The notes below the pieces were generated by a model that was not told the origin of the DNA, did not search any database, and saw only the letters and a list, made by a program, of their open reading frames with translations. A stretch of 64,000 bases of DNA from a virus: positions 112,312 to 176,311 of the IMG/VR virus record IMGVR_UViG_3300007734_000761; one strand, given 5' to 3'. Shown piece after piece: positions 24,128 through 56,997 of this stretch; positions within the stretch are counted from its first letter, which is position 1; each line of letters starts with the position of its first letter. Made by a program: the position numbers and the translations under genes.

Positions 24128-24382
24128 ATAAATTTTTAATTTAAGTTTACCATTTCCTTTAATAGCTCTATGCCATTTGTGTTTAGGAATGTAAATTGGT
24201 TTATTTAATGAAGTTGGTAATTCGTTGTCTAATTGAATTTTCCAATTTGTTTCACCAATTATTTCAATTGTTCTGTCTTCATTATCACGATGCCACATCA
24301 ATTCTATAGGATCAATGTTTTCATCAAATTCCCTAATAATATATTTGTCAGTAATTTCTAAATCTTTATACGGCTTTATCAT
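24119..24382 (-). CDS. Small cupin-like protein
   Basis: WHRD.EDR and IYIPKHKWHRAIKG. Confidence 0.6.
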   Translation of the reverse strand: MIKPYKDLEITDKYIIREFDENIDPIELMWHRDNEDRTIEIIGETNWKIQLDNELPTSLNKPIYIPKHKWHRAIKGNGKLKLKIYLV

Positions 24383-24791
24383 CTGTAAGAGGACCGCCTA
24401 CAACCCAAGCATTACAAGTTCGAGCTGCAGCACATTTAAACTTTAAAAACCTACAGTATCCTAATTGACCTGCTTTAATAACATCAAATGGATCTTCTGT
24501 ACCTTCATCACTACCTATTCCTTTAGCTATGCAATCTAATGTTTTTGTTGTAATATCAAATGCAGCACAGTTACCACAACGAGAAGATTTAGCTTCTTCT
24601 ATAGAATCAAGTTTCCACATGTCTACTTTATCCTGCCAAAATTTATCGTTTGGTTCATTTGGGTTTAGAGGACCATATCCATACTCATTAATTGCTTTTT
24701 GTCTGTTTTGAAGATTTAATTCAATATTTTGAGTGGGGGCAGGACATTTACTTATTTCTGCTTCGTTTAATATATTAATTAGTTTTATCAT
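24366..24791 (-). CDS. Cys-rich putative internal head protein
   Basis: Leader MIKLINILNE; CGNC...C..C...C. Confidence 0.6.
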   Translation of the reverse strand: MIKLINILNEAEISKCPAPTQNIELNLQNRQKAINEYGYGPLNPNEPNDKFWQDKVDMWKLDSIEEAKSSRCGNCAAFDITTKTLDCIAKGIGSDEGTEDPFDVIKAGQLGYCRFLKFKCAAARTCNAWVVGGPLTDDKAV

Positions 24792-25108
24792 TTTTTATCT
24801 TTAATTAACAATTCACCTAAAACTTCTAAACGACCAACTTCTCTTTGAAATTCAATTTGAGACATGTCTAAAGAGATTTTTTTATAAGTTTCCTCGTATT
24901 CTTTTTTTGCTTTTTCTAAATCTAATTTACCTTCACTTGCCTTTTTGTAATAGGGTAATTTAACTTTAAAGTGGTGCCAAGTTAAAAGCGCTAAACCTCC
25001 TTTTTTGTGAGCATTATCAGCAATTTTTTTAGCTCCACTCATACGAGTTTGACTAAAATCTTCAAATTGGTTTTTTGCTTCTACTAGTATGTCTTTAAAT
25101 TTAATCAT
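24788..25108 (-). CDS. Putative internal head protein
   Basis: Leader MIKFKDILVE. Confidence 0.6.
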   Translation of the reverse strand: MIKFKDILVEAKNQFEDFSQTRMSGAKKIADNAHKKGGLALLTWHHFKVKLPYYKKASEGKLDLEKAKKEYEETYKKISLDMSQIEFQREVGRLEVLGELLIKDKK

Positions 25109-25464
25109 TTTTTTAATCGTTGAGTTTTTCTTTTAGATGCTTCTTTTCTGGCAGTGATGTATGTTAGTCCTTTTTTTAAACGAGCTTTTACTTCAGGATT
25201 TTTGGCTTTACTATATGCTGCTCTTACACGTTGATGAATTAAGTTAATAATCTGTGATTGGCGAGCATGGCTTTTTGCTTTAAAAGATGATTTAGACAAT
25301 GTATTTTTAATGTCTTGAACAGTTTTAAATTTAACACCTACAGTATCTGTTGGATCTTCATCTGTGTATAAACGGCGACTTGATCCTTTTGGCTTTTTAC
25401 CTGTGCCTACTTTAGGATCAGCCTCATTTAAAGATTCTTTTAGAAGATCTACTAGTTTAATCAT
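25105..25464 (-). CDS. Basic putative internal head protein
   Basis: Leader MIKLVDLLKE-SLNE; highly Lys/Arg-rich. Confidence 0.6.
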   Translation of the reverse strand: MIKLVDLLKESLNEADPKVGTGKKPKGSSRRLYTDEDPTDTVGVKFKTVQDIKNTLSKSSFKAKSHARQSQIINLIHQRVRAAYSKAKNPEVKARLKKGLTYITARKEASKRKTQRLKK

Positions 25465-26189
25465 TTTGTTTTACCCCATGTTTTACCTTTACCTGGTCTT
25501 TTACATTGAGAAGGTGTAGGTCTACATGATGGATATTTTGATCTTACCTCACCTTTTTTACGGCCACAAGGTTTACATTTTCCATCACGACAAGTATTAC
25601 AATCTACCCATCCTCCTGTTTTACCTGGTGCTCCTTTACGTTTAAACCAAGTTCTTAATGTTTCTTTTTTAGCTTCATCTAATTCAGATTTTCTATTATT
25701 AATATAAGTTTCAATATCTTCGGCTTTATAGCCTAATAGTTGACCTATTCTTCTAGCATCTTCATCAGTAGCTTTATATGACAAATAACCATTGTATTTT
25801 TCTGCTATGTCTTTTAACTCATTAGCTTCATTTTCTGCTCCTTTTACATAAAAAACATAAGCTCTATGGGGATTTGAAGGAACTTTAATAGTACCTAAAT
25901 CAAACTTTTTTACAATATCCCAAAAATTTTTTTCAGGAAAATCCATGCCATCTAAAACCATAAAACCTAATTTTCGTTTTCCATCTAAAACAGTTTTTAT
26001 AGAACCTTTATCCTCGTATGCTTCTTCAGCACTAATTTCTTCTTTTAGTCCCTTCCAAATATTTCCTTTACGACATCTAACAATAGCACCAGACTTATAT
26101 GCTGAAGGTTTACTGTAACGACGATCTGCTATGCGTTTACAGCGATCTTCAGTAAGTACTTCAAGTAATATGTTAGTAAGTTTAATCAT
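25461..26189 (-). CDS. Multi-segment putative internal head protein
   Basis: Leader MIKLTNILLE; three segments split by LKE and LDE; basic Cys-rich C-terminus. Confidence 0.6.
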   Translation of the reverse strand: MIKLTNILLEVLTEDRCKRIADRRYSKPSAYKSGAIVRCRKGNIWKGLKEEISAEEAYEDKGSIKTVLDGKRKLGFMVLDGMDFPEKNFWDIVKKFDLGTIKVPSNPHRAYVFYVKGAENEANELKDIAEKYNGYLSYKATDEDARRIGQLLGYKAEDIETYINNRKSELDEAKKETLRTWFKRKGAPGKTGGWVDCNTCRDGKCKPCGRKKGEVRSKYPSCRPTPSQCKRPGKGKTWGKTK

Positions 26190-27064
26190 ACAGAAATTGA
26201 AGTTGATATGTCACCTGTAGGTATTAACTTACCACCCATATTTTCTATTTTTTGTTTCATTTCTTCAAAGTTTTTTGGTATTACACTTACTTTAAAACTT
26301 TTTGGGTTTTCTTGAACAAATTTAAAAAAATCATTTAATGTAGGAAATAAACCTGTTATATTAGGACGATTTTTATAATCATATTTTTTTAGTTCAACAG
26401 CTTCTCCGGGTATTTTTAAGTACTGTTTTTTTTCTAAAAATGGTTTTAAAAATCCATATTTAGTTGCTCTAAATACTGTTATTTTTTTTAATTTACCATT
26501 AAAATAAAAAATTCCTAATTCCTTTTTTATTCCATTTTCTACACTTCCATATTGTACTGCTAGTCTTCTTTGTGCTTCTCTAGGTAATTCTATAGTAAAA
26601 TTTTCTGTTACCGAAAAATCTATTTTATTTACGTTTTTATCTATTTTTATTTTTCTTAAGGCTTTAGATAAATCAATGCCTTGAGTCAAATCAGAAGTAG
26701 GAGCTGATGAAACTGTAAACTCATCATCTATGTCTACTCCTAAGTCTTTTGCTTTAATAGCTGCACCTTCTACAGGCATTATAATGCCATTCTGCAATAA
26801 AGCTTTTATAAACGTACTAGCGTTACCTGTTCCTTTAATGTTGAATACTTTTTTAACATCATCTACATTGAAATGATTTATGTCTTCTAAAGATTCCATT
26901 TTCAAAACAATGTCTTGAAATCTAGGTCCTGAGCCTCTAACATTAGATATTTTACTTTCCCAGTCATCTGTTAAAGTGTAGAACTTCTTTATCTGTGGCA
27001 TTTCAGCCAAATGTCTTTTTACAGCTTCTACTAGTATTGCTTTTATTAAATTTCTTTTTTCCAT
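26186..27064 (-). CDS. Hypothetical protein, probable internal head protein
   Basis: N-terminal ILVE/LAE; internal DDEFTVSSAP resembles the polyprotein tag. Confidence 0.5.
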   Translation of the reverse strand: MEKRNLIKAILVEAVKRHLAEMPQIKKFYTLTDDWESKISNVRGSGPRFQDIVLKMESLEDINHFNVDDVKKVFNIKGTGNASTFIKALLQNGIIMPVEGAAIKAKDLGVDIDDEFTVSSAPTSDLTQGIDLSKALRKIKIDKNVNKIDFSVTENFTIELPREAQRRLAVQYGSVENGIKKELGIFYFNGKLKKITVFRATKYGFLKPFLEKKQYLKIPGEAVELKKYDYKNRPNITGLFPTLNDFFKFVQENPKSFKVSVIPKNFEEMKQKIENMGGKLIPTGDISTSISV

Positions 27065-27065
27065 A

Positions 27066-27698
27066 TTACCAAAATCCTGAGTATGATGATTTTAATCCTA
27101 ATAATTTAGCGTAGCGAGGTAAACGACAACTCCAGTAACTTGCTTTTGTTCTGTCTTTTTTATTAGGACAATCGTGACGTTTTGAAAAAGCAGCTCTTGC
27201 TTTAGAGTTATTAATTTTAGCTGACAAACCAGTAGTGTCACCAAATGATACTTTTTTAACTCCACCACCTGGTTTTCTTACATAAACATAGAATTTTTTA
27301 GATCCACCACGTTTTGGTTTACCAATTGGAGGTATTTTTTTCTTTTTATCTGCTTCTTCTAAGTCTACTTCTTCTAATAGTAAGTCTATTGGAACTAATT
27401 TACCATTGTAAAAATCAAACGTACCAATTTCTGTTTCTTCTAAAAGTTGCTTGTCAGCTCCATCGAAAGTTATTTGTTTATTTTCATGTAACCATCTAGC
27501 TTCTTGCCATAAGTCAAGAAAAGATTCACTGCCATATCTAAATGTATTTTCAGTAATAGGAAGTTTTTGATAAACATGATATAACATGTTAGGACTAATT
27601 TTTTCTGGGTTAGTCGATTCTGTTAGTAAAGGAGCTTTAGGTCTGGCGCAAGTTGGACATCCTGATCCTTCTAACAATATGTCTTTTAACTTAATCAT
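27066..27698 (-). CDS. Putative internal head protein with basic C-terminal domain
   Basis: Leader MIKLKDILLE; LTE and LEE sites; KKFYVYV...KVSFGD...RHDC...YWSC. Confidence 0.6.
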   Translation of the reverse strand: MIKLKDILLEGSGCPTCARPKAPLLTESTNPEKISPNMLYHVYQKLPITENTFRYGSESFLDLWQEARWLHENKQITFDGADKQLLEETEIGTFDFYNGKLVPIDLLLEEVDLEEADKKKKIPPIGKPKRGGSKKFYVYVRKPGGGVKKVSFGDTTGLSAKINNSKARAAFSKRHDCPNKKDRTKASYWSCRLPRYAKLLGLKSSYSGFW

Positions 27699-29449
27699 TT
27701 TGGTCTGTTCGTTGATTTTACTTTTAAACTAGGAAGTATACCTCCTGCTGAATTTCTTATATCTATTTGATAAATAGTTTCACCTCCTTCAGGACTGTTA
27801 GTAGTAACTCTTACTTCACATGACTTACTTGATATTGATGGATATTTTACTTTTACTTTAGTTACTTCTCCAATAAGTTCATCAATATCTTCCTTTTTAT
27901 TTATATCTTTTATATAAAGTTCGCCTGGTTTGATTTGTCTTACATAATAATACCCATAACCATAACTAGATCTTAAGAAAATAATGATTTTTTGTCCATC
28001 ATAATCAGTAATATCTTCCCACTGTGCCGGTACTCCTTCTTGTTTAACGTAATTTTCTAAACCCTCTGCTATTTTTTCAGGATTAACACCAGTAATTTCA
28101 ATTATTTTCTTAGTTAAACTATCATCCTTCATAAAACTATCTTCATCAAAATAAATATTTTTATCTGGGCTTTGTTTGATGAATTTTAACGTTCCTCCAT
28201 TATAAATGTAATCACCTTTTGGATCTTTTAATGAAATTTTATAATCTTGACCGTTAGCTTTAATAATAATATCAGCTATTTTTGTGCCTATATCTTCAGG
28301 TTCTTCTAAACTTGGTTGACGTTTAGTATCTATTTTACCTGTACCTTCTATATCGTCTGCTTTTATAGTTTGAGGATTAATTTCAAGATAATCAAAAAGT
28401 TGTTTTACTTCTTCATCTTCTATATCTTTTAATTCTTTACCTGCACTCTGTTTTAACTTATCTACAAATTCTTTTTCATAAGCTTCTCCTTTATTAGCCC
28501 CTGATGCTAATATTACACCAACAGGTCCAAACTCAGTTTCAAAACTATACATAGGAAATCTATTGCTACCATAAGGTTTAACATTTATACCTGTTTTAGG
28601 AGGAATTATTGTAATGTTAGCGTCTGGATATAAAGTTTGTAGTAAAGCTTCGAATTGTTCGCTAGGTATTTTATTTGGGTTTGCTACTCTTGAACTTTTG
28701 TTCATGGGTTTAAATCCAAATTCTTTATTTTCTTCAGAATTTAAAATTCTTTGAACTACTTTACCACTATTTTGACCTATAGAACCTTCCAAAAGTAAAA
28801 CTTGTCTTAATGCTATGCGAAACGCCGTTGGGTACTTTTTACCTATTTCTAAAAGCGTCTTTTTTTTTGACTCTACTAGAGGTGTAGTAGTAGTTTCTTC
28901 TGCTGTAGGTAAACTTTCATTTCCTGTTGGTGGAGCTCCCTCTCCTCCTCCTCCTGCGAATGGGTTAGATCCTTCAGAAGGTAATGGTGTTTCTGTAGAT
29001 TCATTGGCCATTGCTTCTTCACTTGGTTCAAGTCCTAACGGAGCTCCCATCATTAATAAGCGAGCTATAGCATCAATTGCTCTTCCTCGTTCTCCTACAT
29101 TTAATAAGTAGTATTTTTTACCAGCTATTTTAGCAATCCAAGTTCTTCCCATGTAAATCATGTAAAAAAACTGGTTGTTATGTAAAATTACTTTAAAAGT
29201 TGTAGGTATAGGAGCAATAACGTAAATACCTGTTATATAATCTAAAAAATCATTACTAAGTAATGTTTGGAGAGATTCTTTTAATGTAGGGTAACTATAG
29301 AGTATATAACCTATTGGATCTTCTTCAAATGTAGGAACTTTCTTAGTATCTTTGTTGAACTTTTCAATGTAAGCCTTATCCGTTTCCTTAGATGTACGGA
29401 ATTTTTGGTATTCTTCGTCGAATATTTTTTGAAAAGTTTTAATATTCAT
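27695..29449 (-). CDS. Hypothetical protein with possible C-terminal PD-(D/E)XK-like nuclease domain
   Basis: YEKEF...KIADIII....YKISLK; Pro/Gly linker then LVE/LLE/LLE sites before this domain. Confidence 0.4.
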   Translation of the reverse strand: MNIKTFQKIFDEEYQKFRTSKETDKAYIEKFNKDTKKVPTFEEDPIGYILYSYPTLKESLQTLLSNDFLDYITGIYVIAPIPTTFKVILHNNQFFYMIYMGRTWIAKIAGKKYYLLNVGERGRAIDAIARLLMMGAPLGLEPSEEAMANESTETPLPSEGSNPFAGGGGEGAPPTGNESLPTAEETTTTPLVESKKKTLLEIGKKYPTAFRIALRQVLLLEGSIGQNSGKVVQRILNSEENKEFGFKPMNKSSRVANPNKIPSEQFEALLQTLYPDANITIIPPKTGINVKPYGSNRFPMYSFETEFGPVGVILASGANKGEAYEKEFVDKLKQSAGKELKDIEDEEVKQLFDYLEINPQTIKADDIEGTGKIDTKRQPSLEEPEDIGTKIADIIIKANGQDYKISLKDPKGDYIYNGGTLKFIKQSPDKNIYFDEDSFMKDDSLTKKIIEITGVNPEKIAEGLENYVKQEGVPAQWEDITDYDGQKIIIFLRSSYGYGYYYVRQIKPGELYIKDINKKEDIDELIGEVTKVKVKYPSISSKSCEVRVTTNSPEGGETIYQIDIRNSAGGILPSLKVKSTNRPK

Positions 29450-30075
29450 TACTTACGACGTAATTTTGCTTTTTCTATTCTTTCACCTTTAGCAACACCG
29501 GCACCAAAAGTATTTTTTTCACCTTTTTTACCAAAACGTTTTGCGTCTCTAGCACGTTTATAATCAGTATCGCCTCTTCCTTCATAGAATTGAGCACCTA
29601 AAATAACATCTGAGTCAGAAGAACGCATAGATGGCATATCATCCATTTCTTCACTTTCTTCTCCAGCTAAATAATTATAAACTGAGTTTAGATAGTCCTC
29701 TGCTATAGTAAGTTTTGACTGTACCCATGCATCTAACTGTTCTCCATCGTCAATCATATTACACAACTTATCAGTTAAACTTTTAATAGAACGAAGCTGA
29801 CCATGAGCCATATCTGATTCATCATCTGGCTGCTTCCAATCATCTTCTTCTAAATCCTCAGCATCAAAAGACATATTTGGTCCTGTTGGATTTGGAACTA
29901 ATGGTTGTTCTTTCATATTTTTAGCAGCACGTAATGCTTTAAAATCAGCACCTGTAATTTTATCTTTAGGTTCAGCTGCAGATGCTATTTTCATTTGTTT
30001 ATCAGACAATTCATTAAGCTCTTTTAAAGCTTGCTGCATGCGCCATTCGTGGATGTCAAAATTATTGTTAGTCAT
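29449..30075 (-). CDS. Hypothetical acidic protein, probable internal head protein
   Basis: LNE, MKE, LEE, FYE sites separating short segments. Confidence 0.5.
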   Translation of the reverse strand: MTNNNFDIHEWRMQQALKELNELSDKQMKIASAAEPKDKITGADFKALRAAKNMKEQPLVPNPTGPNMSFDAEDLEEDDWKQPDDESDMAHGQLRSIKSLTDKLCNMIDDGEQLDAWVQSKLTIAEDYLNSVYNYLAGEESEEMDDMPSMRSSDSDVILGAQFYEGRGDTDYKRARDAKRFGKKGEKNTFGAGVAKGERIEKAKLRRK

Positions 30076-30415
30076 TTTTATATTCTGTTACTTCGGCGCC
30101 TAATACATTAGGCATTTTTTTACGGATATTTTCTAAAATCTTTTTAAGTCTTTCAGAAGTTACTTTACCTTCTTTAGCACTTACCTTTATTCCTGTTGAG
30201 TCTTTAATCTCAAATTTAAAAGGTGGTTCAGACATTTTTGATTCTTTAGCTAATTTAGAATAGTTACTAGGATTGCTTAACCATTTCATAGCACTATTTC
30301 TTAAACCTTCTGATTTAAATACAAAACCTGGTGTTAGTACCTCTACTACTTCCTTTTCTTCAGAAATAATACCAGCTAACGCCTGCATTCTTTTTATTTC
30401 AACTGCTGATTGCAT
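30068..30415 (-). CDS. Hypothetical protein with N-terminal RMQALAGI motif
   Basis: EIKRMQALAGIISE matches the scaffold C-terminus. Confidence 0.55.
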   Translation of the reverse strand: MQSAVEIKRMQALAGIISEEKEVVEVLTPGFVFKSEGLRNSAMKWLSNPSNYSKLAKESKMSEPPFKFEIKDSTGIKVSAKEGKVTSERLKKILENIRKKMPNVLGAEVTEYKND

Positions 30416-30416
30416 A

Positions 30417-30776: not shown

Positions 30777-31367
30777 TTATGATAAATATGTATCAATCTT
30801 AGCTCTTTGGTCAGCAATCCATTGTTTAGTTTCTTTTATTTGTTCTGGAGTTAAACCTCTACCATCCCAACTTTCTACTTCTCCAGTTTCACTCATAACT
30901 TTTTCAAAACCATTAGAAACAAAATCATCAAATTCTTTTTCGGTTTGATCTAAAATGTGTAAATGATTTTTAAAATACATATTCTTCGCGTATTCATCAA
31001 AGATACCGGCCAGTTTCATGTTAGTTTCTTCTTTAGTCACGCACTTTGGACATTTATGCGCAAGCTTATAAATATGTTTTACATACTCACTTTGTCTAGC
31101 TAAAGGTTCACTACATTGAGGACAAGTAAGAGGCATAATATTTGTGTCTTTAAACTTAGCTAACTTACTTACAGTACGTTTTACACCATTTTTAATAGTC
31201 CACGTTTTACCATTTTCATCCCAAACGTCTCCTTCTTGTCTTTTTACTTGAGATTCATAACCTGCCTGAATTGTAGTTCTATCTCCAGTTTTTTTCGTAA
31301 TAATATTACGCATTCGCTGAACTTCACGTTCAGTAAACTGTCTATTTAGTAAAGTTTCTTTACTCAT
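30777..31367 (-). CDS. Zn-finger hypothetical protein
   Basis: CPQC...CPKC. Confidence 0.55.
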   Translation of the reverse strand: MSKETLLNRQFTEREVQRMRNIITKKTGDRTTIQAGYESQVKRQEGDVWDENGKTWTIKNGVKRTVSKLAKFKDTNIMPLTCPQCSEPLARQSEYVKHIYKLAHKCPKCVTKEETNMKLAGIFDEYAKNMYFKNHLHILDQTEKEFDDFVSNGFEKVMSETGEVESWDGRGLTPEQIKETKQWIADQRAKIDTYLS

Positions 31368-33666
31368 ATTTAAATTTATATAACTTTTTTATTGATTCTC
31401 TTGAGTCTTCTGGATTGTTTTTTATTCCTGTTCCACCAGCTTGAATAAACTGACTAACGTTTGAACCCACATCATCAATCAACATATAACCTGGTTTTGC
31501 TTCTGTGTGTTTGTCTTTAGCTTGTTTGTATACTCTTCTGTCTTGAGGAATATTTAAATGTTTGTCTACCCATTCATTTTTTCCCTTTTTAGCATCTCCG
31601 TTTGGATCTAAACCTGGTGATGATAATATCCATACTTCTATACCTTTTTCATCAGCTATTTTCATAACGGCCTTATAAAGTTCTTCTCCACCTGGATTCC
31701 AAGGCATTGTTGACCAAAACTTTACTTTGCCTTTATTAATTATATCCCAAGCTTTATTAGCACCATATTTTCCAATGTATGATTTAAAATCTAAATTTTC
31801 TTTGTTGTATTTTTTAAATTGATCATCAAAACCAGCTAATACTCCATCTAAATCAAAGTAGATTCTTGTAATAGGAGGATTTGTTTCTTTAGATTCATTT
31901 AACATTCCAATATTATAAATGCTAGGATTTTGTTTTCCATAGTCTCTCATTAATATACCGGCAATAGCATTGGCATCATTTTCATGTTCACTACCAGTTT
32001 CGCCTGAATCTGGTTGTAATAAGCCCATTTCGTTTTGTTTAGCATGAACTAACTCATGAGCTAACGTGCGAAGAACATCAACTATATTTCTGTTACTAGG
32101 ATTGACAAATATATGATGTTTTGATGGAACATATGCTCCAAAACTTGGTTGATCTTCACCATATTCATATCTAATTTCAAACGAAGGAGGATTATGAATT
32201 TGAAGTTCGTTGCAAGCATAAGTCATGAATTTTTCAAAAAGTGAATTTTTATCAACAGACTCATTTAAAGATAAAGTTTTATCTATAAAAGAATTTTTTA
32301 GATTATTAAGTTTTTCTAAATAACCTGTGTTTCTTAAATTTTTAAATGCTAAGTTTTCTAATGAATATTCACCATCTTCATCTAATCCTGTTTGTCTAAA
32401 GTTTTTAAGACGTTCTTTAATTTTATTTGTAAGTTCTATCGCTTTTTCAGGATTATTTTTACCTATTTTTTCTAATTTATCTATTTGTTGTTTAAATAAC
32501 TTTGCTTTCTTTTCAATTTCTTCGTCAGGAATATTTATTTCTACAAAAGACGGTTTACGTAACCATTTATCATTCATTAAGCTGTATTCACCTCTATATT
32601 CAGGATGGTCTTTATTATCTTGAATGTAAACTTCAATATTTTGTTTGCCTAATTTTAAATCATGAACCCTATTCCAGTTAACCTTTGCTTCATCAAAGTA
32701 TTTTTTTAACAATTCAGGATTTTCAAATTTGTCAAAATCAACAACAATGTGTAAATCTATGTCAGATGTTGGAGTATAATTATAATTTACACTACTTCCT
32801 GTTAAAAGAATATCTTCAAACGGTTCAGGTATTTCTAATCCTTCCCAAAAATAATTAGCTACTTTTAATAATAACTCTTTTACTTTTGGGTCTACTTTAT
32901 CATCAGTATCAAAAATTAAAGGATTTAATTTATTTTGACTCTTATATTCTAACCAAACCCACTGAGGTTGTTTTTTAGGGTTTGGTTGAGTTCCTTCTTG
33001 TAAACTAGCTGGTTCAGGAAAATTAATTCCTAAAACTCTCTGAATGTCATCTAAGTATCCTTTTTGTATTACTGCTTCAGGAAATAAACTTTTAAAGTAG
33101 TTATATGTAGTATTATAATCGTTTAATGCTTTTTTATCTCCAGGATTATTTTTTACTTGAAGATATCTTTGTCTTAATTCAGCTATTGTAGCTCTAAAGT
33201 CAGTTCCACTAACTCTATCACCATCACTATCTACAAATTGATCATCTACAATTTCTTCTTGAACTCTATCACCAAAAGCCTCTTTTAAACCTTTAAAATA
33301 TTCTAAATCATCTGCTTCTTTACCAGCAGCAGCAACATAAGCTTCTCTATTTAAGTCATCTCCAAACCATCTATAAAGATCTCTAATAGGAGATTTAGTC
33401 TTAGCAATTTCAACTTTAATTTTTGGATTTGGTTGGGCTTTTAAATAAATGTCCCAAATTGCTTTACTTTGTTCTGCTGTAATTCCACCTCTTTTACCGT
33501 GACCTATTAATACATTTACTTGAGTAATATAAGGTTTTGCTGCTAATTGTTGAGCAGCGGCAAGATGACCTTTATGTGGTGGTTTAAAACCTCCAGGATA
33601 CCAACAAATTTCAGGTTTTTTGGCTACTTCTTCTCCTATTAATTTTCCTATTTCTGCTACGTTCAT
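31360..33666 (-). CDS. Four-domain enzyme: HxGH nucleotidyltransferase, Pol-beta-like nucleotidyltransferase, HExxH metalloprotein, HAD 5'(3')-nucleotidase-like
   Basis: PGGFKPPHKGH...VSGT; TGSSVNYNY...SDIDLH; TLAHELVH..Q...E; IYFDLDGVL...LSS...LIDD. Confidence 0.8.
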   Translation of the reverse strand: MNVAEIGKLIGEEVAKKPEICWYPGGFKPPHKGHLAAAQQLAAKPYITQVNVLIGHGKRGGITAEQSKAIWDIYLKAQPNPKIKVEIAKTKSPIRDLYRWFGDDLNREAYVAAAGKEADDLEYFKGLKEAFGDRVQEEIVDDQFVDSDGDRVSGTDFRATIAELRQRYLQVKNNPGDKKALNDYNTTYNYFKSLFPEAVIQKGYLDDIQRVLGINFPEPASLQEGTQPNPKKQPQWVWLEYKSQNKLNPLIFDTDDKVDPKVKELLLKVANYFWEGLEIPEPFEDILLTGSSVNYNYTPTSDIDLHIVVDFDKFENPELLKKYFDEAKVNWNRVHDLKLGKQNIEVYIQDNKDHPEYRGEYSLMNDKWLRKPSFVEINIPDEEIEKKAKLFKQQIDKLEKIGKNNPEKAIELTNKIKERLKNFRQTGLDEDGEYSLENLAFKNLRNTGYLEKLNNLKNSFIDKTLSLNESVDKNSLFEKFMTYACNELQIHNPPSFEIRYEYGEDQPSFGAYVPSKHHIFVNPSNRNIVDVLRTLAHELVHAKQNEMGLLQPDSGETGSEHENDANAIAGILMRDYGKQNPSIYNIGMLNESKETNPPITRIYFDLDGVLAGFDDQFKKYNKENLDFKSYIGKYGANKAWDIINKGKVKFWSTMPWNPGGEELYKAVMKIADEKGIEVWILSSPGLDPNGDAKKGKNEWVDKHLNIPQDRRVYKQAKDKHTEAKPGYMLIDDVGSNVSQFIQAGGTGIKNNPEDSRESIKKLYKFKYE

Positions 33667-34505
33667 GGTTTAGCAAATGTTTTTACTGCTCCTACTGCTT
33701 CTCTATAATTTAGAGGTTTAATAATTTTTAAAAACTTTTCAACAGTTTTAAATTGATCCTTAATATTTTTAACAGCATCACTAAATTTCTTCTCTGCTGC
33801 TTTTTTCTTTTCTTCTTTTGCCTTTAAAGTTTCAGGATCTGGTAAGTCTTTTGATGTTTTTACATCAGAAGGTTGGGGTTTACTGAAACTAGATCTGTAT
33901 TTTTCTGGATCTGTTTGTATTAACTGTTTAAAGTAATCTTCTAATTCACCTGACTTTAGTACTTTTTCAAATTTATTAACATTTGCTTTTTCAGCAGGTG
34001 ATAATTCTGTTTGAACAACTAAATACTCAATACCAGGAATGCTTTTATAGCTACTTATTTGGTTATATACTTTAGCCCAATTATTTAACACAACTTCTTT
34101 AGGTAATTTTCTACTTCTATTAAAATTTCTTAAAAAGCTAACAATAGGACTTCCGTAAAGTGTAATAACCATTACTTTATAACCATTTTGTTGTGCGTTA
34201 CTCACAATTTCTGCTGTTTCTTTAAAATTTTGTCCTGTAGTATCATAAATAAAATTTTGTTTTTTACTAATAGCATCAGGAATAGCCTTAGTTCTTATAA
34301 TAATATTATTTTTACTTATGTTAGGTCTATCAGGATCATCTTCTGGATTAAAAGTATCAGGATTGAATACTCTAAAATCTGAAGGTATATTTCTTACTAA
34401 ATCATTTATTAAAGTTGATTTACCCATTCCTGCTGCTCCTGATAGAATTATTGCTTTTGGTTGTGTGCCAAAAACTTCTAATAACAAAGACTGCAGATTA
34501 ATCAT
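33663..34505 (-). CDS. P-loop kinase (zeta toxin/AAA_33-like) with leader MINLQSLLLE
   Basis: GAAGMGKST, NPD, IYDTTG, RNFNRSR. Confidence 0.7.
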   Translation of the reverse strand: MINLQSLLLEVFGTQPKAIILSGAAGMGKSTLINDLVRNIPSDFRVFNPDTFNPEDDPDRPNISKNNIIIRTKAIPDAISKKQNFIYDTTGQNFKETAEIVSNAQQNGYKVMVITLYGSPIVSFLRNFNRSRKLPKEVVLNNWAKVYNQISSYKSIPGIEYLVVQTELSPAEKANVNKFEKVLKSGELEDYFKQLIQTDPEKYRSSFSKPQPSDVKTSKDLPDPETLKAKEEKKKAAEKKFSDAVKNIKDQFKTVEKFLKIIKPLNYREAVGAVKTFAKP

Positions 34506-34518
34506 ACATATAAATATG

Positions 34519-36293: not shown

Positions 36294-36779
36294 TTATAAA
36301 TCAATTATATGAATTAAACCACTTTTTGGATAAGTATGTTCTTTACCATCATTTTTTTTCATTATAATATTATCTCCATCAATTTTGGTAATTCTACCTA
36401 CTTGTTGTCTAACACTATTCATATCTTTATATGACATTTTAGGTAAAACATTTAAACCTACTTTTAAATCTGCCATTTGGTTTGATTTTGGTTGGTCCAT
36501 TCCAAAGGGTTTTGTTACATCTTTAAGATAAAAGAATGGTATTTTTTCTTCTTTTAATCCTATTTTTTTATCTCCAAAAGCATCATTAATTGCATCCCAA
36601 TCATCATGACTTACAGAAATTTTCTTTTTAGAACCATCTTCAAACTCAACATTATATGATTTGTCACCATTTTGTGTAGCATTTTTAATTGTTTTTCCTT
36701 CACATTTAACTTCACTTAGTTGAGATTGTGGAGTTAATTTGTTTTCAATTAAAAACTTTTTTAAGTCAAAATTATCCAT
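36294..36779 (-). CDS. Hypothetical two-segment protein, probable internal head protein
   Basis: MDNFDLKKFLIE leader; LSE and LKE separate two small beta-rich segments. Confidence 0.5.
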   Translation of the reverse strand: MDNFDLKKFLIENKLTPQSQLSEVKCEGKTIKNATQNGDKSYNVEFEDGSKKKISVSHDDWDAINDAFGDKKIGLKEEKIPFFYLKDVTKPFGMDQPKSNQMADLKVGLNVLPKMSYKDMNSVRQQVGRITKIDGDNIIMKKNDGKEHTYPKSGLIHIIDL

Positions 36780-36790
36780 AGTAATAAATA

Positions 36791-37255
36791 TTATTCAAAG
36801 TCTCTTCGGTAGAATTTTCCTAAAATGTTATCGCAATAACATAGATTATCTTGTAAACAGCCGTTTTCCATTTGGGCTTTTACTTCATAATATGTTAAAA
36901 GTTTTTTATTAGAAACAATGTAAAGTATTTCTCTAGAAAATTCAGTGTCTAATTTACCTTTTTTAAATTCTAAAAAATCTTTACTTGAACCCCAATATTC
37001 TAACCAGTCACTTTCTTTTTGAACTACTTTTGTAGTTGATCTTCTACCAGGGCCAGTTTGTTCTAATATTTCTTTTTTAGTAAGTTTTTTCTTTATGTTG
37101 TGGAAAAGAACTTTTTTACCAACATAATATCGTTTTGTTTCTTTATGGATTATTTTATAAATAAACCCATAAGTGTTTTCAGGAAAATCTGAAAGTTCGT
37201 TGAAATATTTAATATCTCCTTTTTTAAAAGTAAACCACATGCTATGAGCGTTCAT
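36791..37255 (-). CDS. GIY-YIG (Seg-like) nuclease-family protein
   Basis: YGFIYKI......YYVGKK, YWGSS, FSREIL, E, N. Confidence 0.7.
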   Translation of the reverse strand: MNAHSMWFTFKKGDIKYFNELSDFPENTYGFIYKIIHKETKRYYVGKKVLFHNIKKKLTKKEILEQTGPGRRSTTKVVQKESDWLEYWGSSKDFLEFKKGKLDTEFSREILYIVSNKKLLTYYEVKAQMENGCLQDNLCYCDNILGKFYRRDFE

Positions 37256-48864: not shown

Positions 48865-49292
48865 TATATAAGTTCTCCAGATAATTCATTATTTACTTGT
48901 ATACTAAGTTCATCAGACATATTATTAATAGAATAAAATATATTAATACTTATTGTGTTGCTGTTACTAGGAGTAATAGTTAATTCTTTTATTATTATAT
49001 TTTGAACATAACGCTCAATTAAATCTTTTAAACTTTCTTCTAAACTAGTAAAATCGGTATTTTGTTCAAAAAGTAAATTTCGTATCCCTGCTCCAAAAGC
49101 AGGATCAAAAAATCTTTCTCCAGGATTTGTAAGAATAAAATTTATTAATTGATTTTTGGTTTGTTGTTTTGTAGTATATGTACTTGTAAAAACTCCAGGT
49201 GTTATGAATTCCAAACTTATTCCTATTTCTCGTTGACGAGAATATGATGATGTAAGTTCATTATAGGAATATATAGGTCTATTTGGAATCAT
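48864..49292 (-). CDS. Baseplate/sheath initiator (gp25-like)
   Basis: ILTNPGERFFDPAFGAGIRNLLFE. Confidence 0.9.
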   Translation of the reverse strand: MIPNRPIYSYNELTSSYSRQREIGISLEFITPGVFTSTYTTKQQTKNQLINFILTNPGERFFDPAFGAGIRNLLFEQNTDFTSLEESLKDLIERYVQNIIIKELTITPSNSNTISINIFYSINNMSDELSIQVNNELSGELI

Positions 49293-49726
49293 TATAATAA
49301 TCCTTTATTTTTCATTGTAGTCATCATAGCACTAAAATCAGGTACACTATTTACTTGTACTTGTCTAATATCTTGTGCTCCGTTATTATTTTGTTGAATA
49401 AAACCTTCAATTCCTTTAGTTACAGGAGTTGCTCCTTCTCCATATTCATTCATTAACTGTTGTTGAAAACCAAAATTTTGAGCTTGATGAGAATCAAAAG
49501 TACCTCCTCCTAACGTTCTCCATTCACCTTCATAAGCTGTTTCATTTAGAAGATCTTGAATTGAATTTCCTGTTGATTTTGGTTTAGGAGCTCTTTTAAT
49601 GTTTTCTATTGTTGGATTGTAATTTTCTTTAATAGAGGATGTACCTAATTCTTCTTTAAGAGCCGCTCTAACTTCTTTACGAACTACTTCTTGTATTAAC
49701 TTTAATAATTTTTCTGTACTGTTCAT
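49292..49726 (-). CDS. Hypothetical protein
   Basis: ORF; helical N-terminus LIQEVVRKEV; ATATTTAT upstream. Confidence 0.55.
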   Translation of the reverse strand: MNSTEKLLKLIQEVVRKEVRAALKEELGTSSIKENYNPTIENIKRAPKPKSTGNSIQDLLNETAYEGEWRTLGGGTFDSHQAQNFGFQQQLMNEYGEGATPVTKGIEGFIQQNNNGAQDIRQVQVNSVPDFSAMMTTMKNKGLL

Positions 49727-50827: not shown

Positions 50828-51207
50828 TAGTAAGTTTTCGTTATTTTTGATTTAATATTAATTAATTTAGTTTTTAATAATGTAATATCTCCTACTAATG
50901 CTGCTTCTGCTCCATCAGGAGTTGTTACTATTTGGTTCATTATATCTAACATTTCAGATAAAATTTTTATTAGTTCATCTGATTTTGGGACTGCTTCTAA
51001 TTTTACAGCATTATTTGATTTTAATCCTAAAATTATATTTTGAGAATTTATAATATAAGAATTTTTTTTATTTTTAGGGTCTCCAGTTTGATATATTATA
51101 GAACCACCAGAATAAGTATTTATATTCTTATTAGACTTTATATCAATATTATCTATAGATGATGATATAAAAACATATTCAGATGATATATTTAATTGCT
51201 GTTTCAT
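50827..51207 (-). CDS. Possible gp5-like spike beta-helix C-terminal part
   Basis: Short beta repeats (INSQNIILG...AVPKSDEL), ends IKSKITKT. Confidence 0.4.
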   Translation of the reverse strand: MKQQLNISSEYVFISSSIDNIDIKSNKNINTYSGGSIIYQTGDPKNKKNSYIINSQNIILGLKSNNAVKLEAVPKSDELIKILSEMLDIMNQIVTTPDGAEAALVGDITLLKTKLINIKSKITKTY

Positions 51208-52715: not shown

Positions 52716-53052
52716 TGCTTATTCCTAAATCTTCTAAACTGGCGAATAAAAGTTCTTTATCTTTATCAGACATCATTCCACCATTTTCTTCTTGAGCTCT
52801 TAAACTTACAGCTTCTATTTTTTGAATAATAGTAAGTATTTTGATAATGGTATCATCATTTTTAATGAGTAAATCCATATATTCTTTAATTAATGGAACC
52901 ATCATTACAGCATCTCCACCATCATTAATTAAATCTTTTAATTGATTAATCATTGATCTAAGTTGACTGCTTTTATCGTTTTTATCTTTATAAGCTTCTT
53001 CCATCAACTTAGCTATAGTTTTACCTTTAAATATTTCTTTATTATAGTCCAT
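52705..53052 (-). CDS. Helical hypothetical protein (small-terminase-like fold possible)
   Basis: Helical hairpin pattern only; ATATTTAT upstream. Confidence 0.4.
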   Translation of the reverse strand: MDYNKEIFKGKTIAKLMEEAYKDKNDKSSQLRSMINQLKDLINDGGDAVMMVPLIKEYMDLLIKNDDTIIKILTIIQKIEAVSLRAQEENGGMMSDKDKELLFASLEDLGISNAG

Positions 53053-53072
53053 ATTGTATAAATATGGTTTTA

Positions 53073-53828
53073 TTAAAGTTTTTGGACTACTCCATCTCTA
53101 ACATAGTCGTTATAAAGTTTAACATATAAAATTTTCATCTTTTTAATAACTTTTGTTATAAGAGTAGTATCAGCGTCTACCATTTCTCTTATGAATATGT
53201 AAAAGGCTTTTTTATTGAATATATCTAAATTTTCTCTTGTTTTAAAAATTTGTAATACCGCGTTAGCTACTTGTTGTTCTTTATATTTAACATATAACTT
53301 TTCTAAATATTCTTCGTTATATTTAATATAAACATCAAAAAACATACTTAAAGTATTTTCTTGAAAACTATCAACTATTAATTCTTTTTTTACTACTTCT
53401 TCATCATTAACTATAGTTTCAGTAATATCTTGGTGAGTTTGAAGTTTTTTATAGTTATTCTGGTTATTAAATATAAAATATCTTTTAGCTATTGTGCCAA
53501 AATAGCTATATGCTTTACCTTTATTTGGTTTAAATTTTTCTAAACGTTCAAGTAAAAATATAATAGCGTTATGTTGTAATTCTTCTATTGTATGATTATC
53601 AGTGTAATAGTATTTATAAGTATGAATTAAATTTTCTGTTAGCTTAAAAAAAGCATAGTGAATTTTTTCTTTATAAATTTTATTTCTTTTTTGAACATCA
53701 GTACAACTTACAAACTCAACAATAGCTTCTTCAGTTTCTTGAGTAAAATAGTTACGGTCTTTTTTAGGTTTTCTTTTCCTAAGAGTTCCTTTTTTCGTGT
53801 AAACATTAGGATCTAAAGTAGTACTCAT
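53073..53828 (-). CDS. Phage sigma factor (T4 gp55-like late sigma)
   Basis: NYF....EAI..., KLTENLI, KFKPNKGKAYSYFGTIAKRYFI resembles sigma region 2 of gp55 homologues. Confidence 0.65.
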   Translation of the reverse strand: MSTTLDPNVYTKKGTLRKRKPKKDRNYFTQETEEAIVEFVSCTDVQKRNKIYKEKIHYAFFKLTENLIHTYKYYYTDNHTIEELQHNAIIFLLERLEKFKPNKGKAYSYFGTIAKRYFIFNNQNNYKKLQTHQDITETIVNDEEVVKKELIVDSFQENTLSMFFDVYIKYNEEYLEKLYVKYKEQQVANAVLQIFKTRENLDIFNKKAFYIFIREMVDADTTLITKVIKKMKILYVKLYNDYVRDGVVQKL

Positions 53829-54094
53829 TCTTTATATTGTTTTAAAGATTCATTGAGGTTTTTTAGTTCTAACCACATTTGACCTACATAATCATTACTT
53901 CTAAATGTTTGTTCTTCGTCTATTTTATCAAAACTATAAGTAATATTATTAACGGCTTGTTTTGTTTCGGCAATACGTTGAGATTGTTTTTCAATAATTT
54001 TTTCTAATTTATTAATTCTTTGCCAAAGATTATTAAAAATAAATCCTACTACTGTTATTACCCAAAGTAATATTGCAATTATTCCTGTACTCAT
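53825..54094 (-). CDS. Small membrane protein
   Basis: N-terminal TM helix plus coiled coil. Confidence 0.6.
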   Translation of the reverse strand: MSTGIIAILLWVITVVGFIFNNLWQRINKLEKIIEKQSQRIAETKQAVNNITYSFDKIDEEQTFRSNDYVGQMWLELKNLNESLKQYKE

Positions 54095-54095
54095 A

Positions 54096-54866
54096 TTATA
54101 GATTTTTTAACATGTCAGCAAAAGCTGTATTTTTATTTCCTATTTGTCTAATAGCTTTTTCTTGAGATTTTTGTTTTGATTGAAAATTATTTACTAAAGG
54201 TTTTTTAACTGGTTCTTTATAAAAATTATCTAAACATTCATGTTCCCATTCAACTCTAGCTGCTAATAAGTCGGCTTGATGTAAAATATAAACCATACTA
54301 GTTCTAGGTCTAGTCTCTGGCATGTATGATTTTAAGTAAGGTTCATTTGCTTGATCATAAAGTCCATCATGTAATTTAATAGTTAAATATTCATTTTGAG
54401 ATACTTTAATACCTAATTCAGCTAATAACCATAATCCACGATCAGGTACTGACATGTAAGTAAGTTTAGTATTAAATTGGTACATCTCACCTAATTTTGT
54501 TTTTCGCCATTCGTCGGTTTGTTCAATAACTGCTTCATGTTCAAGATCTCCAAATTTACCTAAATCATGGTTAATTGCACTAAATACTAACTCTTCAGTA
54601 GTATAGTTATCTTTACAATCAAATTTTTTCCATACTTTATCTAATTCAAGAGATGCATCTATTACTCTTAATACGTGATCAATATAGCCCCCTGGAAAAG
54701 AATTATGATAACCACTTTTATGGCTTGCTGGCATTAAACTAAAACGTTCCTCATATTTTTGATAAAACTCTAATAACTGTTCTTTTCTAGGGGACTCGAT
54801 ATATTGATCTATAACAGAGAGGAAACGATTCCAATTTTCTAAAATTTGTTCTGGTGTTAAATTCAT
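54096..54866 (-). CDS. HD-domain phosphohydrolase
   Basis: PASH...H...GGYIDHVL, NHDLGK, LHDG, HQAD. Confidence 0.85.
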   Translation of the reverse strand: MNLTPEQILENWNRFLSVIDQYIESPRKEQLLEFYQKYEERFSLMPASHKSGYHNSFPGGYIDHVLRVIDASLELDKVWKKFDCKDNYTTEELVFSAINHDLGKFGDLEHEAVIEQTDEWRKTKLGEMYQFNTKLTYMSVPDRGLWLLAELGIKVSQNEYLTIKLHDGLYDQANEPYLKSYMPETRPRTSMVYILHQADLLAARVEWEHECLDNFYKEPVKKPLVNNFQSKQKSQEKAIRQIGNKNTAFADMLKNL

Positions 54867-54867
54867 A

Positions 54868-55122
54868 TTAAAACCTTCCTGATTGAATTCCGTAATCGAT
54901 ATTCTTTTGTGGATTTGGGAATGATGCTGTGTTGTATTGTTCTTCTTCTTGATTCAAATACGTTCTAATCTGTTCAAATGCTTGTTTACTAACTTCAATT
55001 TGTTTTTCTAAAAATACTCGTTCACCTTCTGCAAGACTGGTATTGCGAATGAATTGAATAAAACTTTGTTGAACTGCCTCAATTTGGCCTAAAGTTAACT
55101 GTACGTGTCTTTTGTTTCTCAT
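54868..55122 (-). CDS. Hypothetical protein
   Basis: ORF with ATGA coupling. Confidence 0.5.
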   Translation of the reverse strand: MRNKRHVQLTLGQIEAVQQSFIQFIRNTSLAEGERVFLEKQIEVSKQAFEQIRTYLNQEEEQYNTASFPNPQKNIDYGIQSGRF

Positions 55123-55475
55123 GATAAATGTGGGGTTAATTGTTTATATATTGTTATTTGTGGATTTAAATTTGAAATTAATTTACTGTGTCTAATAGGA
55201 CTATCTGTATGTAATACTTTAGTTTCTGGGTAATTGATAAATATAACTGGATAGCTATTACTTTGAAGAATACCTTCAATTTCATCGGCTATTAATTCAT
55301 GTTTAGTATCCATGCAATCAAAACTTTCATAACTCCATCCATCAATCATTAATTCAGATTCTAATGACTTACAAACTTTACACCCATGTAATTTAAATAC
55401 AATAATTTGAGGTTCAAATTCAGTTCCGTTATTTTTTTGGTACATTTGAACTTTTTCTATCAGTTTTTCTACCAT
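55119..55475 (-). CDS. Thioredoxin/glutaredoxin-like protein
   Basis: GCKVC and SYPVIFI; probable start at 55475. Confidence 0.65.
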   Translation of the reverse strand: MVEKLIEKVQMYQKNNGTEFEPQIIVFKLHGCKVCKSLESELMIDGWSYESFDCMDTKHELIADEIEGILQSNSYPVIFINYPETKVLHTDSPIRHSKLISNLNPQITIYKQLTPHLS

Positions 55476-55482
55476 ACCTCTT

Positions 55483-55511
55483 ATTATAACATAATGAATT
55501 GTAAAGGCCAA
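55483..55511 (-). promoter_or_regulatory. Promoter TTGGCC-N17-TATAAT with extended TG
   Basis: -10 box lies 7 nt above the ATG at 55475. Confidence 0.55.
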
Positions 55512-55592
55512 ACTTAGATTTATTTTTCTCCCCCCGCCCCATATCTTAGGAAAAAAAACTAATTAATAAAAACTAAGCATAAAGTATTTGAT

Positions 55593-55676
55593 TTAAGGAA
55601 AATCATACCATTTAGAGCCGACCGTTGGTTTTCTGTATGTAGTTTTAGACTTACTAGTCTGTGTTTCCACAAACAT
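55593..55676 (-). CDS. Possible 27-aa microprotein
   Basis: MFVETQTSKSKTTYRKPTVGSKWYDFP; preceded by TTGGTT-N17-TAATAC. Confidence 0.35.
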   Translation of the reverse strand: MFVETQTSKSKTTYRKPTVGSKWYDFP

Positions 55677-55707
55677 AGTATTAATAAAAATACTCTTAAA
55701 AACCAAA

Positions 55708-56997
55708 TTACAAACCAGCTAATCTTTGAAGTCTTTCAAGTAAAGCATTATCTGCGTCATCTGCTGTTTTATCTTGACGCATTTGTTTAAACATGCCTTT
55801 TAATTGATTTAATTGTTGACTAGTAACATTATTATTAATTACATTAGTCATTAATTGAATAAATTCTTTATTTTCTAACTTATAAATATCTTGTAAGAAA
55901 TCATCTCTTTCCTCAGGTGTAACGTTAACTTCTAATTTATTAATTAAGTCTTGTAAGTTTTTAGCAATTAACTGACCATAAGCAATGTCTTCAGGTTCAT
56001 TAGTAATTTTATCAGTAAATTTAACTACTTTTTCTCCTCTTTCTAAATCACTAAATCCAAATAAACCAATAATTTCATACATTCCTTTTACAATTTCTAA
56101 TATAAGAACAGGAAAAACAATAGCTCTTGCTTTAATAATCCATTTTTCTTTTTCAAAATCATAAAATACTGACTCAGCTCCAGTAGCACTAGATTCTAAA
56201 TCAGCTCCACCCATACGCATACCAGCTGCTCCTACTGAAAAATCAATTAAATCAAGAGCAGCCTGCATTAAATCTCTGTATTTATCACTTGTTCCTTGTC
56301 CACCAATAATATCAATGTATTCTTGTTGAATGTAATGAGCTGATTTACTAAATGTAGAAGCGCCTTGCGTAACAGCGTTAATTAATCTTCTTTTTTTTAA
56401 ATCCTCAGCAATGTCATCCATCATTTCTTGTTCTTCTTCTACACTTAATTCATCAATGTCTTCTTCTTGTGGTGAATTTGGTTGTAAAGCTTCTTTAACT
56501 TGTGGTTGAGGAACAATTTTAGCATCAATTTCAATTACATCTTCATTTGACTTTAAATAAGGATAGGCTTCGTATATAACATCGTAGGCTAACTGTTCAA
56601 GTAAATCTTGATTTCCTTGTTCTAACTGCATTACTTGTTGAGCTAACTGCATTAGATTACCCATAATCTGCATTGGGTTTTTACCTTGTATCCTTTGTTT
56701 TACACTACCTTTTAATTTACCTAATGTTTCTGGGTCAAAAACCTTATCATAGTCGGCCTCACTTAATTTATTAAAAGCAGACATGTATCTATCTACAATT
56801 TTTTTCATAACTTCACTTTCTTCTCCCATTAAAGTTTTAGCTTTTGGAGCAGGAGTTGGTGAAGTACTAGGACTAGGAACACTTCTTCTACGAGGAGTAG
56901 GTTTAGTAGGTGTATCTGTATCGGGTTTAGTAACCGGTTTAGTAGGAGCTGGTGCAGTTTGAGGTTCCTCTAACAATAAAGATTTTAACTTGATCAT
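55708..56997 (-). CDS. Putative head-associated protein
   Basis: Leader MIKLKSLLLE, Pro/Thr linker, helical body, C-terminal RLQRLAGL. Confidence 0.6.
   Translation of the reverse strand: MIKLKSLLLEEPQTAPAPTKPVTKPDTDTPTKPTPRRRSVPSPSTSPTPAPKAKTLMGEESEVMKKIVDRYMSAFNKLSEADYDKVFDPETLGKLKGSVKQRIQGKNPMQIMGNLMQLAQQVMQLEQGNQDLLEQLAYDVIYEAYPYLKSNEDVIEIDAKIVPQPQVKEALQPNSPQEEDIDELSVEEEQEMMDDIAEDLKKRRLINAVTQGASTFSKSAHYIQQEYIDIIGGQGTSDKYRDLMQAALDLIDFSVGAAGMRMGGADLESSATGAESVFYDFEKEKWIIKARAIVFPVLILEIVKGMYEIIGLFGFSDLERGEKVVKFTDKITNEPEDIAYGQLIAKNLQDLINKLEVNVTPEERDDFLQDIYKLENKEFIQLMTNVINNNVTSQQLNQLKGMFKQMRQDKTADDADNALLERLQRLAGL

Follow-up and report, generated by a model that had tools for sequence, protein, structure and literature searches.

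A ten-residue N-terminal leader resembling the T4 capsid-targeting sequence on unrelated proteins of an uncultured T4-like phage

The last 64 kb of the single-contig virus record IMGVR_UViG_3300007734_000761 (176,311 bp), referred to here as the window, contains seven open reading frames (ORFs) whose otherwise unrelated products begin with the same ten-residue leader, M-I-K-L-x-[DN]-[IL]-L-x-E. We consider it likely, with a probability of roughly 70%, that this leader is a capsid-targeting propeptide of the T4 type operating in a distant lineage, where it would serve more, and different, cargo than in T4 and would exist in several interchangeable classes. The proteins that carry it are probably packed into the virion. 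The source is a 176-kb T4-like phage of aquatic Bacteroidota, a distant T4-type myovirus whose closest cultured match is Flavobacterium phage immuto (49% identity), and nearly all of its genes lie on the minus strand. All positions given below are those of the window unless marked as genome positions.

A shared leader on otherwise unrelated proteins

All seven of the window ORFs are encoded on the minus strand and begin M-I-[KN]-[LF]-x-x-[IL]-L-x-E. The N-termini listed in a first-pass annotation of this DNA were found to be exact, namely MIKLINILNE (start at 24791), MIKFKDILVE (25108), MIKLVDLLKE (25464), MIKLTNILLE (26189), MIKLKDILLE (27698), MINLQSLLLE (34505) and MIKLKSLLLE (56997), as was its statement that each has Glu at position 10 within L-x-E. 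The set is, however, larger than the seven that had been listed: three further leader ORFs lie outside the window (genome starts 14924, 26608 and 42895; N-termini MTTLKQLLLE, MISLTNILNE and MITLSSLLPE), giving ten in the genome, and additional genes carry longer leaders. No leader ATG has an in-frame Met upstream of it, each being the earliest start codon that its ORF offers, and within the gene cluster these ATGs overlap the preceding stop codon as ATGA. The leaders have a common layout, in which positions 4, 7 and 8 are hydrophobic and position 10 is Glu.

From amino-acid composition, 0.00004 starts matching the strict motif would be expected in the 60 window genes, compared with the seven seen. 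When the looser motif M-[IT]-x-[LF]-x-x-[IL]-L-x-E was applied to the 201 genes of the genome, ten starts matched against 0.002 expected. The same motif without its Met had a single internal match in 56,045 residues (0.6 expected), and the motif is therefore specific to N-termini. Likewise, a hydrophobic-hydrophobic-x-E sequence with Glu placed exactly at position 10 is present in 11 genes, compared with about one per position elsewhere.

Similarity between the leader proteins does not extend past residue 10. All-against-all BLASTP of the mature parts gave no match with an E value better than 0.2, in agreement with their earlier description as otherwise unrelated; paralogy as the cause of the shared start was rejected on this ground. 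The mature parts are basic in seven of the ten leader proteins (isoelectric point (pI) 9.4-10.6), and in a wider sample a pI above 8.5 was found for 55% of leader-gene mature parts, compared with 24% of other proteins.

The codons used for Leu vary among the seven window leader genes. We also assessed 109 leaders from related contigs that had not been selected by a DNA pattern, 60 of which still have I-K at positions 2-3, and found that codon use at Lys3, Leu4, Leu8 and Glu10 equals the background of the same genes. We conclude that it is the peptide, rather than translation initiation, that is under constraint; for the same reason a signal at the level of the mRNA was tried as an explanation and rejected. 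The first-pass annotation had staked its reading on the motif not being equally common on replication enzymes, and the leader was found on none of the 17 recognised replication and nucleotide-metabolism genes.

A scan of IMG/VR with one codon version of the leader returned at least 120 loci and, among the matches listed, at least two different ORFs begin with the motif in 63 of the 112 loci that have any such start. The scan pattern fixed ATG ATT AAA at one ORF per locus, so that the conservation of positions 2-3 in the pooled logo is partly a matter of ascertainment. In the 235 distinct leaders among the matches listed, positions 4, 7, 8 and 10 carry 3.7, 3.1, 3.5 and 4.3 bits, respectively, and position 11 only 0.6 bits, a drop that sets a sharp limit to the module. 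In two complete genomes, 173 and 181 kb in size, there are four and five leader genes, mostly clustered upstream of the head module as they are in the window. The search over related genomes that had been proposed as a check thus found leader clusters on many uncultured viral contigs. The leader, which had been read as a lineage-specific label, is not confined to this phage, being widespread in uncultured T4-like contigs. Peptidase_S77 is encoded by 21 of 28 leader contigs that were checked, comprising all three complete genomes and 18 of 25 fragments. Among cultured phages, immuto (vB_FspM_immuto, grown on Flavobacterium sp. LMO8) has gene products that start MIKLIDLLTE (24977 in the immuto genome), MISIYNILKE (103322) and MRLLELLRE (112217). 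A homologue of one cargo domain is encoded by Methylophilales phage Melnitz, in whose whole genome no MIKL-type start was found; neither Melnitz nor pelagiphage HTVC008M could stand in for the present phage in experiments. In the searchable literature we found no description of the leader motif and no relevant virion data for immuto.

The head module and the comparison with T4

The order of the head module is that of T4: large terminase, portal, three small head-module proteins, protease, scaffold and capsid protein. The gp21-type prohead protease (13723..14352, minus strand; phrog_207, 4.7e-57; Pfam Peptidase_S77, 5e-31) aligns with T4 gp21 over its length, with His77 and the serines of SSRG invariant. 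Its N-terminus, MTKQVLIE, falls opposite MNEPQLLIE of T4 gp21 in this alignment and requires translation to start at 14352, the start that the alignment with relatives and T4 gp21 favours. The major capsid protein, of the gp23 type (10427..12163, minus strand; Pfam Gp23, 1.3e-76), starts MSTINQLLE, and the resemblance of both N-termini to the leader that had been pointed out in the first-pass annotation is therefore borne out, for the protease on condition of the 14352 start.

The capsid protein has candidate processing sites at QLLE9, GLLE35, MLLE50 and LIVE59. Its N-terminal 59 residues align with the propeptide of T4 gp23, and LIVE59/TNTTAGATSG (the slash follows the Glu) is found opposite FLTE65/AEIGG..AAGQTSG of T4 gp23; by alignment the site is kept in three relatives, and the three LLE sites upstream of it are also conserved in relatives. 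We predict that the main maturation cut falls not at E9 but at E59, the homologue of T4 E65. As a hydrophobic-x-Glu sequence is retained at the cleavage position of T4 gp23, the specificity of the protease has most likely also been retained relative to T4 gp21. Between the protease and the capsid protein lies the gene for a 466-aa protein, assigned as scaffold from this position (12183..13583, minus strand), which ends in ITRMQQLAGIITK. Its N-terminal and C-terminal peptides are conserved in about 35 relatives, the extreme C-terminus reading ..RMQQLAGIITK (12183-12230).

A further protein of the head module, of 263 aa (15522..16313, minus strand), has a 20-aa leader ending RLKE followed by MSTGAGATSGFQTGTGYQ. 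This sequence is very similar to the N-terminus predicted for the mature capsid protein (TNTTAGATSGFTTGQGYQ), and relatives of the 263-aa protein have GLKxE/MSTTGTGAS in common.

The internal-protein start MKTYQEFIAE, quoted from T4 in the first-pass annotation, was confirmed for ipII and ipIII, which are adjacent genes (NC_000866) and whose two copies of the capsid-targeting sequence (CTS) are identical in DNA (NC_000866 65689-65718 and 66386-66415). The first ten residues of IPIII suffice for loading, targeting depends on residues 4 and 7 of the CTS and processing on residues 8 and 10, T4 gp21 has LIE-9 near its own N-terminus, and the T4 internal proteins are basic (PMC9026906). The present phage resembles T4 in several respects. 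Its ten-residue N-terminal leader occurs on otherwise unrelated, mostly basic proteins and is conserved at exactly the T4 functional positions 4, 7, 8 and 10; the homologous protease keeps an N-terminal LIE motif; the capsid protein keeps hydrophobic-x-Glu at the homologous maturation position, as judged from the alignment; and the carriers lie partly in an adjacent gene cluster, as ipII and ipIII do. It differs from T4 in the consensus itself (MIKLxD[IL]LxE instead of MKTYQEFIAE), in the number of carriers (at least ten per genome compared with three), in that a P-loop kinase and a sigma-factor-like protein are among the carriers, in having several interchangeable leader classes, and in the varied synonymous codons of its leaders where the two T4 copies are identical.

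The giant phages phiKZ and SPN3US differ from the present case in their cleavage motif, S/A/G-x-E, and in their propeptides, which are long and dissimilar; we know of no short shared address peptide described for them. They are alike in that many head-internal proteins, enzymes included, are reported to be cut after Glu by a gp21-related prohead protease and to be ejected into the host (PMC5694885, PMC7411985, PMC10052503).

Cargo proteins, variant leaders and a second tag

Five of the window leader genes are encoded close together on the minus strand. They specify a Cys-rich protein of 141 aa with an acidic mature part (MIKLINILNE; 24366..24791), a basic protein of 106 aa (MIKFKDILVE; 24788..25108), a 119-aa protein with a mature pI of 10.6 (MIKLVDLLKE; 25105..25464), a basic, Cys-rich protein of 242 aa (MIKLTNILLE; 25461..26189) and a 210-aa protein with a C-terminal phrog_7595 domain (MIKLKDILLE; 27066..27698). 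Two neighbouring genes, also on the minus strand, have variant leaders: a 292-aa protein (26186..27064) with the 13-aa leader MEKRNLIKAILVE, whose homologues start MDKKILLKKILSE and MKHQKLKQVLKE, and a 584-aa protein (27695..29449) with the 12-aa leader MNIKTFQKIFDE, whose homologues start MKNKEILKYLIKE and MTKLAILRQLIKE. As these two carry longer leaders, the stretch from 29449 down to 24366 comprises seven consecutive tagged genes. Counting these two, at least five genes of the genome besides the ten have longer leaders, which likewise end hydrophobic-hydrophobic-x-Glu.

It can be seen from the families of these proteins that leaders behave as modules. In the alignment of the 106-aa family M1, I2, K3 and E10 are invariant and indels occur directly after residue 11. 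Orthologues of the 141-aa protein at 76-89% identity keep the leader, and in more distant ones it is replaced by a leader of the MDNFDL type (MDNFDLRKYLAEN). This second class, MDNFDLKKFLxEN, is found on two unrelated genes of this genome, and also on two immuto genes; in the window it is represented by MDNFDLKKFLIEN on a 161-aa protein (36294..36779, minus strand) behind a ATATTTAT motif at 36784-36791. Homologues of the 242-aa protein have MIKL-, M[DNT]RLEKLI.E- or other leaders, and elsewhere members of the 210-aa and 242-aa families begin M[DEN]RLEKLIxE or MLKQYIQE or have no leader. The C-terminal domain of the 210-aa protein is present without a leader in non-T4-like phages, in roseophages and in pelagiphages, HTVC008M among them. 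One cargo family may therefore bear a MIKL-, MDNFDL- or MxRLEKLIxE-type leader or none. Searches of Pfam and PHROGs named no small cargo protein, except for a weak match of the 242-aa protein to DUF5872, just below the Pfam cut-off, and the phrog_7595 match, a family of unknown function. Likewise, megablast of the cluster region against cultured phages gave no match.

Other carriers have recognisable enzyme domains. The gene starting MINLQSLLLE (33663..34505, minus strand) encodes a 280-aa protein with the Walker A sequence GAAGMGKST and a Pfam Zeta_toxin match of 46.2 bits (cut-off 22.3). Its structural model (predicted local distance difference test score, pLDDT, 79) was matched by Foldseek, with probability 1.0, to PSTK, PezT/zeta and bacterial polynucleotide kinase (Pnkp), and the earlier listing of a P-loop kinase among the leader proteins is upheld. 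A sequence search of solved structures gave no match. In the model a helix at residues 4-12 precedes the first strand. Among homologues at 22-36% identity, M1, I2, L4, L8 and E10 vary no more than the residues of Walker A do. Co-transcribed with the kinase gene is a gene for a 768-aa multi-enzyme protein (31360..33666, minus strand) that starts with the leader-like sequence MNVAEIGKLIGE and comprises a nucleotidyltransferase, a metallopeptidase-like domain and, as its last domain, a HAD nucleotidase. The site GMLNE591, which SKETNPP follows, lies seven residues before the nucleotidase domain. In immuto the nucleotidase is a separate gene (109812 in the immuto genome) behind the leader MKKVMGNLADLLLE/ESDFMP (DLLLE/E), and the Glu sites of the fused protein (GMLNE591) and of the immuto protein (DLLLE) share the same register relative to the start of the nucleotidase domain.

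Outside the window, the leader MTTLKQLLLE belongs to a 243-aa protein (genome 14193-14924) encoded behind a ATATTTAT motif. This protein is similar to sigma-70 region 2, with marginal scores (Pfam Sigma70_r2, 24.1 bits against a cut-off of 24.0; phrog_351, 3.9e-7; SigB in the PDB, 3e-4), and region 4 of sigma factors was not detected in it. Its homologues at 46% identity start MILLKHLLLE.

The remaining window member, MIKLKSLLLE (55708..56997, minus strand), is a 429-aa protein with a Pro/Thr linker and an acidic helical body. Its C-terminus (LLERLQRLAGL; 55708-55740) resembles the C-terminal peptide of the scaffold. The scaffold-type peptide recurs elsewhere: the N-terminus of a 115-aa ORF, EIKRMQALAGIISE (30068..30415, minus strand), copies it and represents a second type of tag, a 577-aa protein encoded beyond the window (genome 82464-84195) has it at either end, and two MIKL proteins from other contigs end in it. 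Where it stands at an N-terminus as a tag, hydrophobic-x-x-Glu or hydrophobic-hydrophobic-x-Glu usually comes after it. The RMQxLAGI peptide may be a second address for cargo, one that imitates the scaffold, and, by analogy with the scaffold termini of other phages, such a terminus would tie at least one leader protein to the interior of the prohead. The coat-binding peptides of P22-type scaffolds and the cargo-loading peptides of encapsulins illustrate how a short terminal peptide could dock cargo to the inside of a shell. The recurrence of the RMQxLAGI scaffold end at the termini of unrelated proteins is alike; this likeness concerns the second tag and not the MIKL leader, and binding of the capsid protein is putative here. 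A complex prediction for the scaffold with the 106-aa cargo scored 0.00 against a mark of 0.32, which speaks neither for nor against binding.

The genome has 58 sense and 7 antisense copies of the octamer ATATTTAT, which usually stands 4-25 nt ahead of a start codon. The window has 24 sense and 2 antisense copies, usually at this distance before structural or leader genes and never before recognised replication genes, for example at 9633, 13675, 15399, 17179, 19145, 30782, 34510, 36784, 46989, 57003, 62367 and 63491. When genes were labelled by homology to annotated immuto genes, the octamer was found to precede nine structural genes (including portal, neck, sheath, tube, hub and tape measure) plus PhoH among 20 annotated, and none of 17 genes of replication or metabolism (Fisher p = 5e-4), the latter having roles in replication, recombination, queuosine or chaperonin functions. 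It stands directly upstream of all five solitary MIKL-type genes (p = 8e-4), and also of an MRLLDLLAE gene and both MDNFDL genes. The copy at 30782..30789 (minus strand) heads the gene run from 30761 to 24119 that includes the leader cluster, and which from its gene spacing may be read as an operon. Another (34510..34517, minus strand) is found 4 nt before the ATG of the kinase gene, which thus has its own copy though primase and exonuclease genes stand just upstream, and a third (57003..57010, minus strand) lies 5 nt before the ATG at 56997. We regard ATATTTAT as a candidate late promoter; the T4 late promoter, TATAAATA, has TATTTATA as its reverse complement.

Two other regions of the window are unusual. 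At 57746-62359 a 1537-aa protein consists of about 15 tandem modules and is polyprotein-like, with a protease-type site at each junction; each module opens, behind a tripeptide [LM]-x-E, with an acidic tag common to the modules (EDEFNVDAPxEWN...LxxGD). Positions 1-6178 hold the 3' part of an ORF of about 3464 aa, open on both strands over the first 6 kb of the window. This is a repeat-rich, fibre-like gene in a region of unusually high G+C content (0.48, compared with about 0.30 elsewhere).

Interpretation and alternatives

In the mechanism that we propose, tagged proteins would be made late, alongside the head proteins. The amphipathic leader, through its hydrophobic positions 4, 7 and 8, would bind the assembling scaffold core so that the proteins become enclosed in the prohead, and the gp21-family prohead protease would then cut after Glu10 of L-x-E to free the mature, mostly basic proteins. 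These would stay in the head with the DNA and would probably be delivered into the next host. The longer leaders (MDNFDLKKFLxEN; M-x-K-x-x-L-[IL]-K-x-[IL]-[IL]-x-E) appear to do the same job, and the second tag that copies the scaffold C-terminal peptide appears to serve likewise. The capsid address put forward in the first-pass annotation gains support from the lack of leaders on replication genes, the background codon use, the T4 register and the presence of a gp21-family protease, and none of the computational tests able to refute it did so. We also count in its favour the number of unrelated carriers compared with chance, the LIVE59 site of the capsid protein, the modularity of the leaders, the nucleotidase comparison with immuto, the association with ATATTTAT, the scaffold-type ends of leader proteins, the co-occurrence with Peptidase_S77 and the basic character of the cargo.

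Several observations weigh against this interpretation. The leader and the T4 CTS have only Met1, Glu10 and a hydrophobic pattern in common, and ten residues are too few for their homology to be proven. The lateness of ATATTTAT is suggested only by the genes that it precedes. A sigma-factor-like protein would be unexpected cargo, and since residues past Glu10 are also conserved in it, its N-terminus could be part of the fold. Homologues of the 429-aa protein lack the leader, and a leader-like gene at 49292-49726 adjoins baseplate genes. Finally, a survey of the literature found no proteomic, structural or genetic data for leader-carrying phages.

An alternative that would not need to invoke an address is that the leader is only a propeptide removed by the protease, for example to keep enzymes inactive until maturation, with any encapsidation left to other determinants, for instance the mature domains or the scaffold-like peptide. 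A processing site is indeed indicated more directly than targeting by the L-x-E ending and the abrupt boundary at Glu10, and the tag copying the scaffold C-terminus co-occurs with the leader on three proteins. However, cleavage alone would need just L-x-E, and positions 2-7 are as conserved as 8-10; the equivalent T4 positions 4 and 7 carry targeting (PMC9026906), and most leader proteins have no other shared feature. We therefore consider a propeptide without address function improbable. It is also quite improbable, in our view, that the leader mediates an N-terminal interaction in a process that has nothing to do with the capsid, such as docking to the GroEL/GroES chaperonin encoded by the phage, to a site of assembly at the membrane, or to a factor acting in regulation or degradation. 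Short amphipathic helices are suited to many kinds of contact, homologues of GroES and GroEL are encoded in the genome, and the sigma-factor-like carrier is no obvious virion protein, but an interaction of this kind would leave four observations unexplained: the invariant Glu10 in the register of gp21 sites, the link to phages with Peptidase_S77, the shared motif on the N-termini of the capsid protein and the protease, and the scaffold-type C-terminus of a leader protein.

Very improbable, finally, is a shared start that reflects a feature of the nucleic acid (a translation-initiation context or a recombination cassette) or a relic of gene duplication, with no functional peptide. ATG ATT AAA is AT-rich, as is favoured after start codons, and the ATGA overlaps of the cluster force a second codon beginning with A. 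Such an origin is difficult to reconcile with synonymous codons at Lys3, Leu4, Leu8 and Glu10 that follow the background, with the end of similarity at residue 10, with the absence of the motif from replication genes that are also well expressed, and with kinase orthologues so diverged (22-36% identity) that keep the leader as invariant as Walker A.

Returning to the capsid-targeting propeptide, a more far-reaching version can be envisaged in which a toolkit comprising the P-loop kinase, the multi-enzyme nucleotide-metabolism protein and the sigma-factor-like protein is loaded into the head through interchangeable address peptides and injected with the DNA, and would reprogramme host transcription and nucleotide pools before phage genes are expressed. 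The MIKL leader and RMQxLAGI would then form a two-address system open to new cargo by leader swapping. We regard this extension as speculative and rather unlikely, and to our knowledge no virion-delivered sigma factor is known.

The cultured Flavobacterium phage immuto bears such leaders, which makes the idea of a capsid address directly testable. If it is correct, the leader would serve, as it stands, as a tag by which foreign proteins are brought into the capsids of phages that infect non-model hosts. The motif alone would list the proteins probably injected by a group of uncultured aquatic T4-like phages that is both large and abundant, and these proteins would be candidates for effectors of anti-defence and host takeover to which no search by homology can put a name. 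Capsid targeting on the T4 principle, demonstrated to date only for T-even phages, would then extend to distant lineages holding many more types of cargo, enzymes included.

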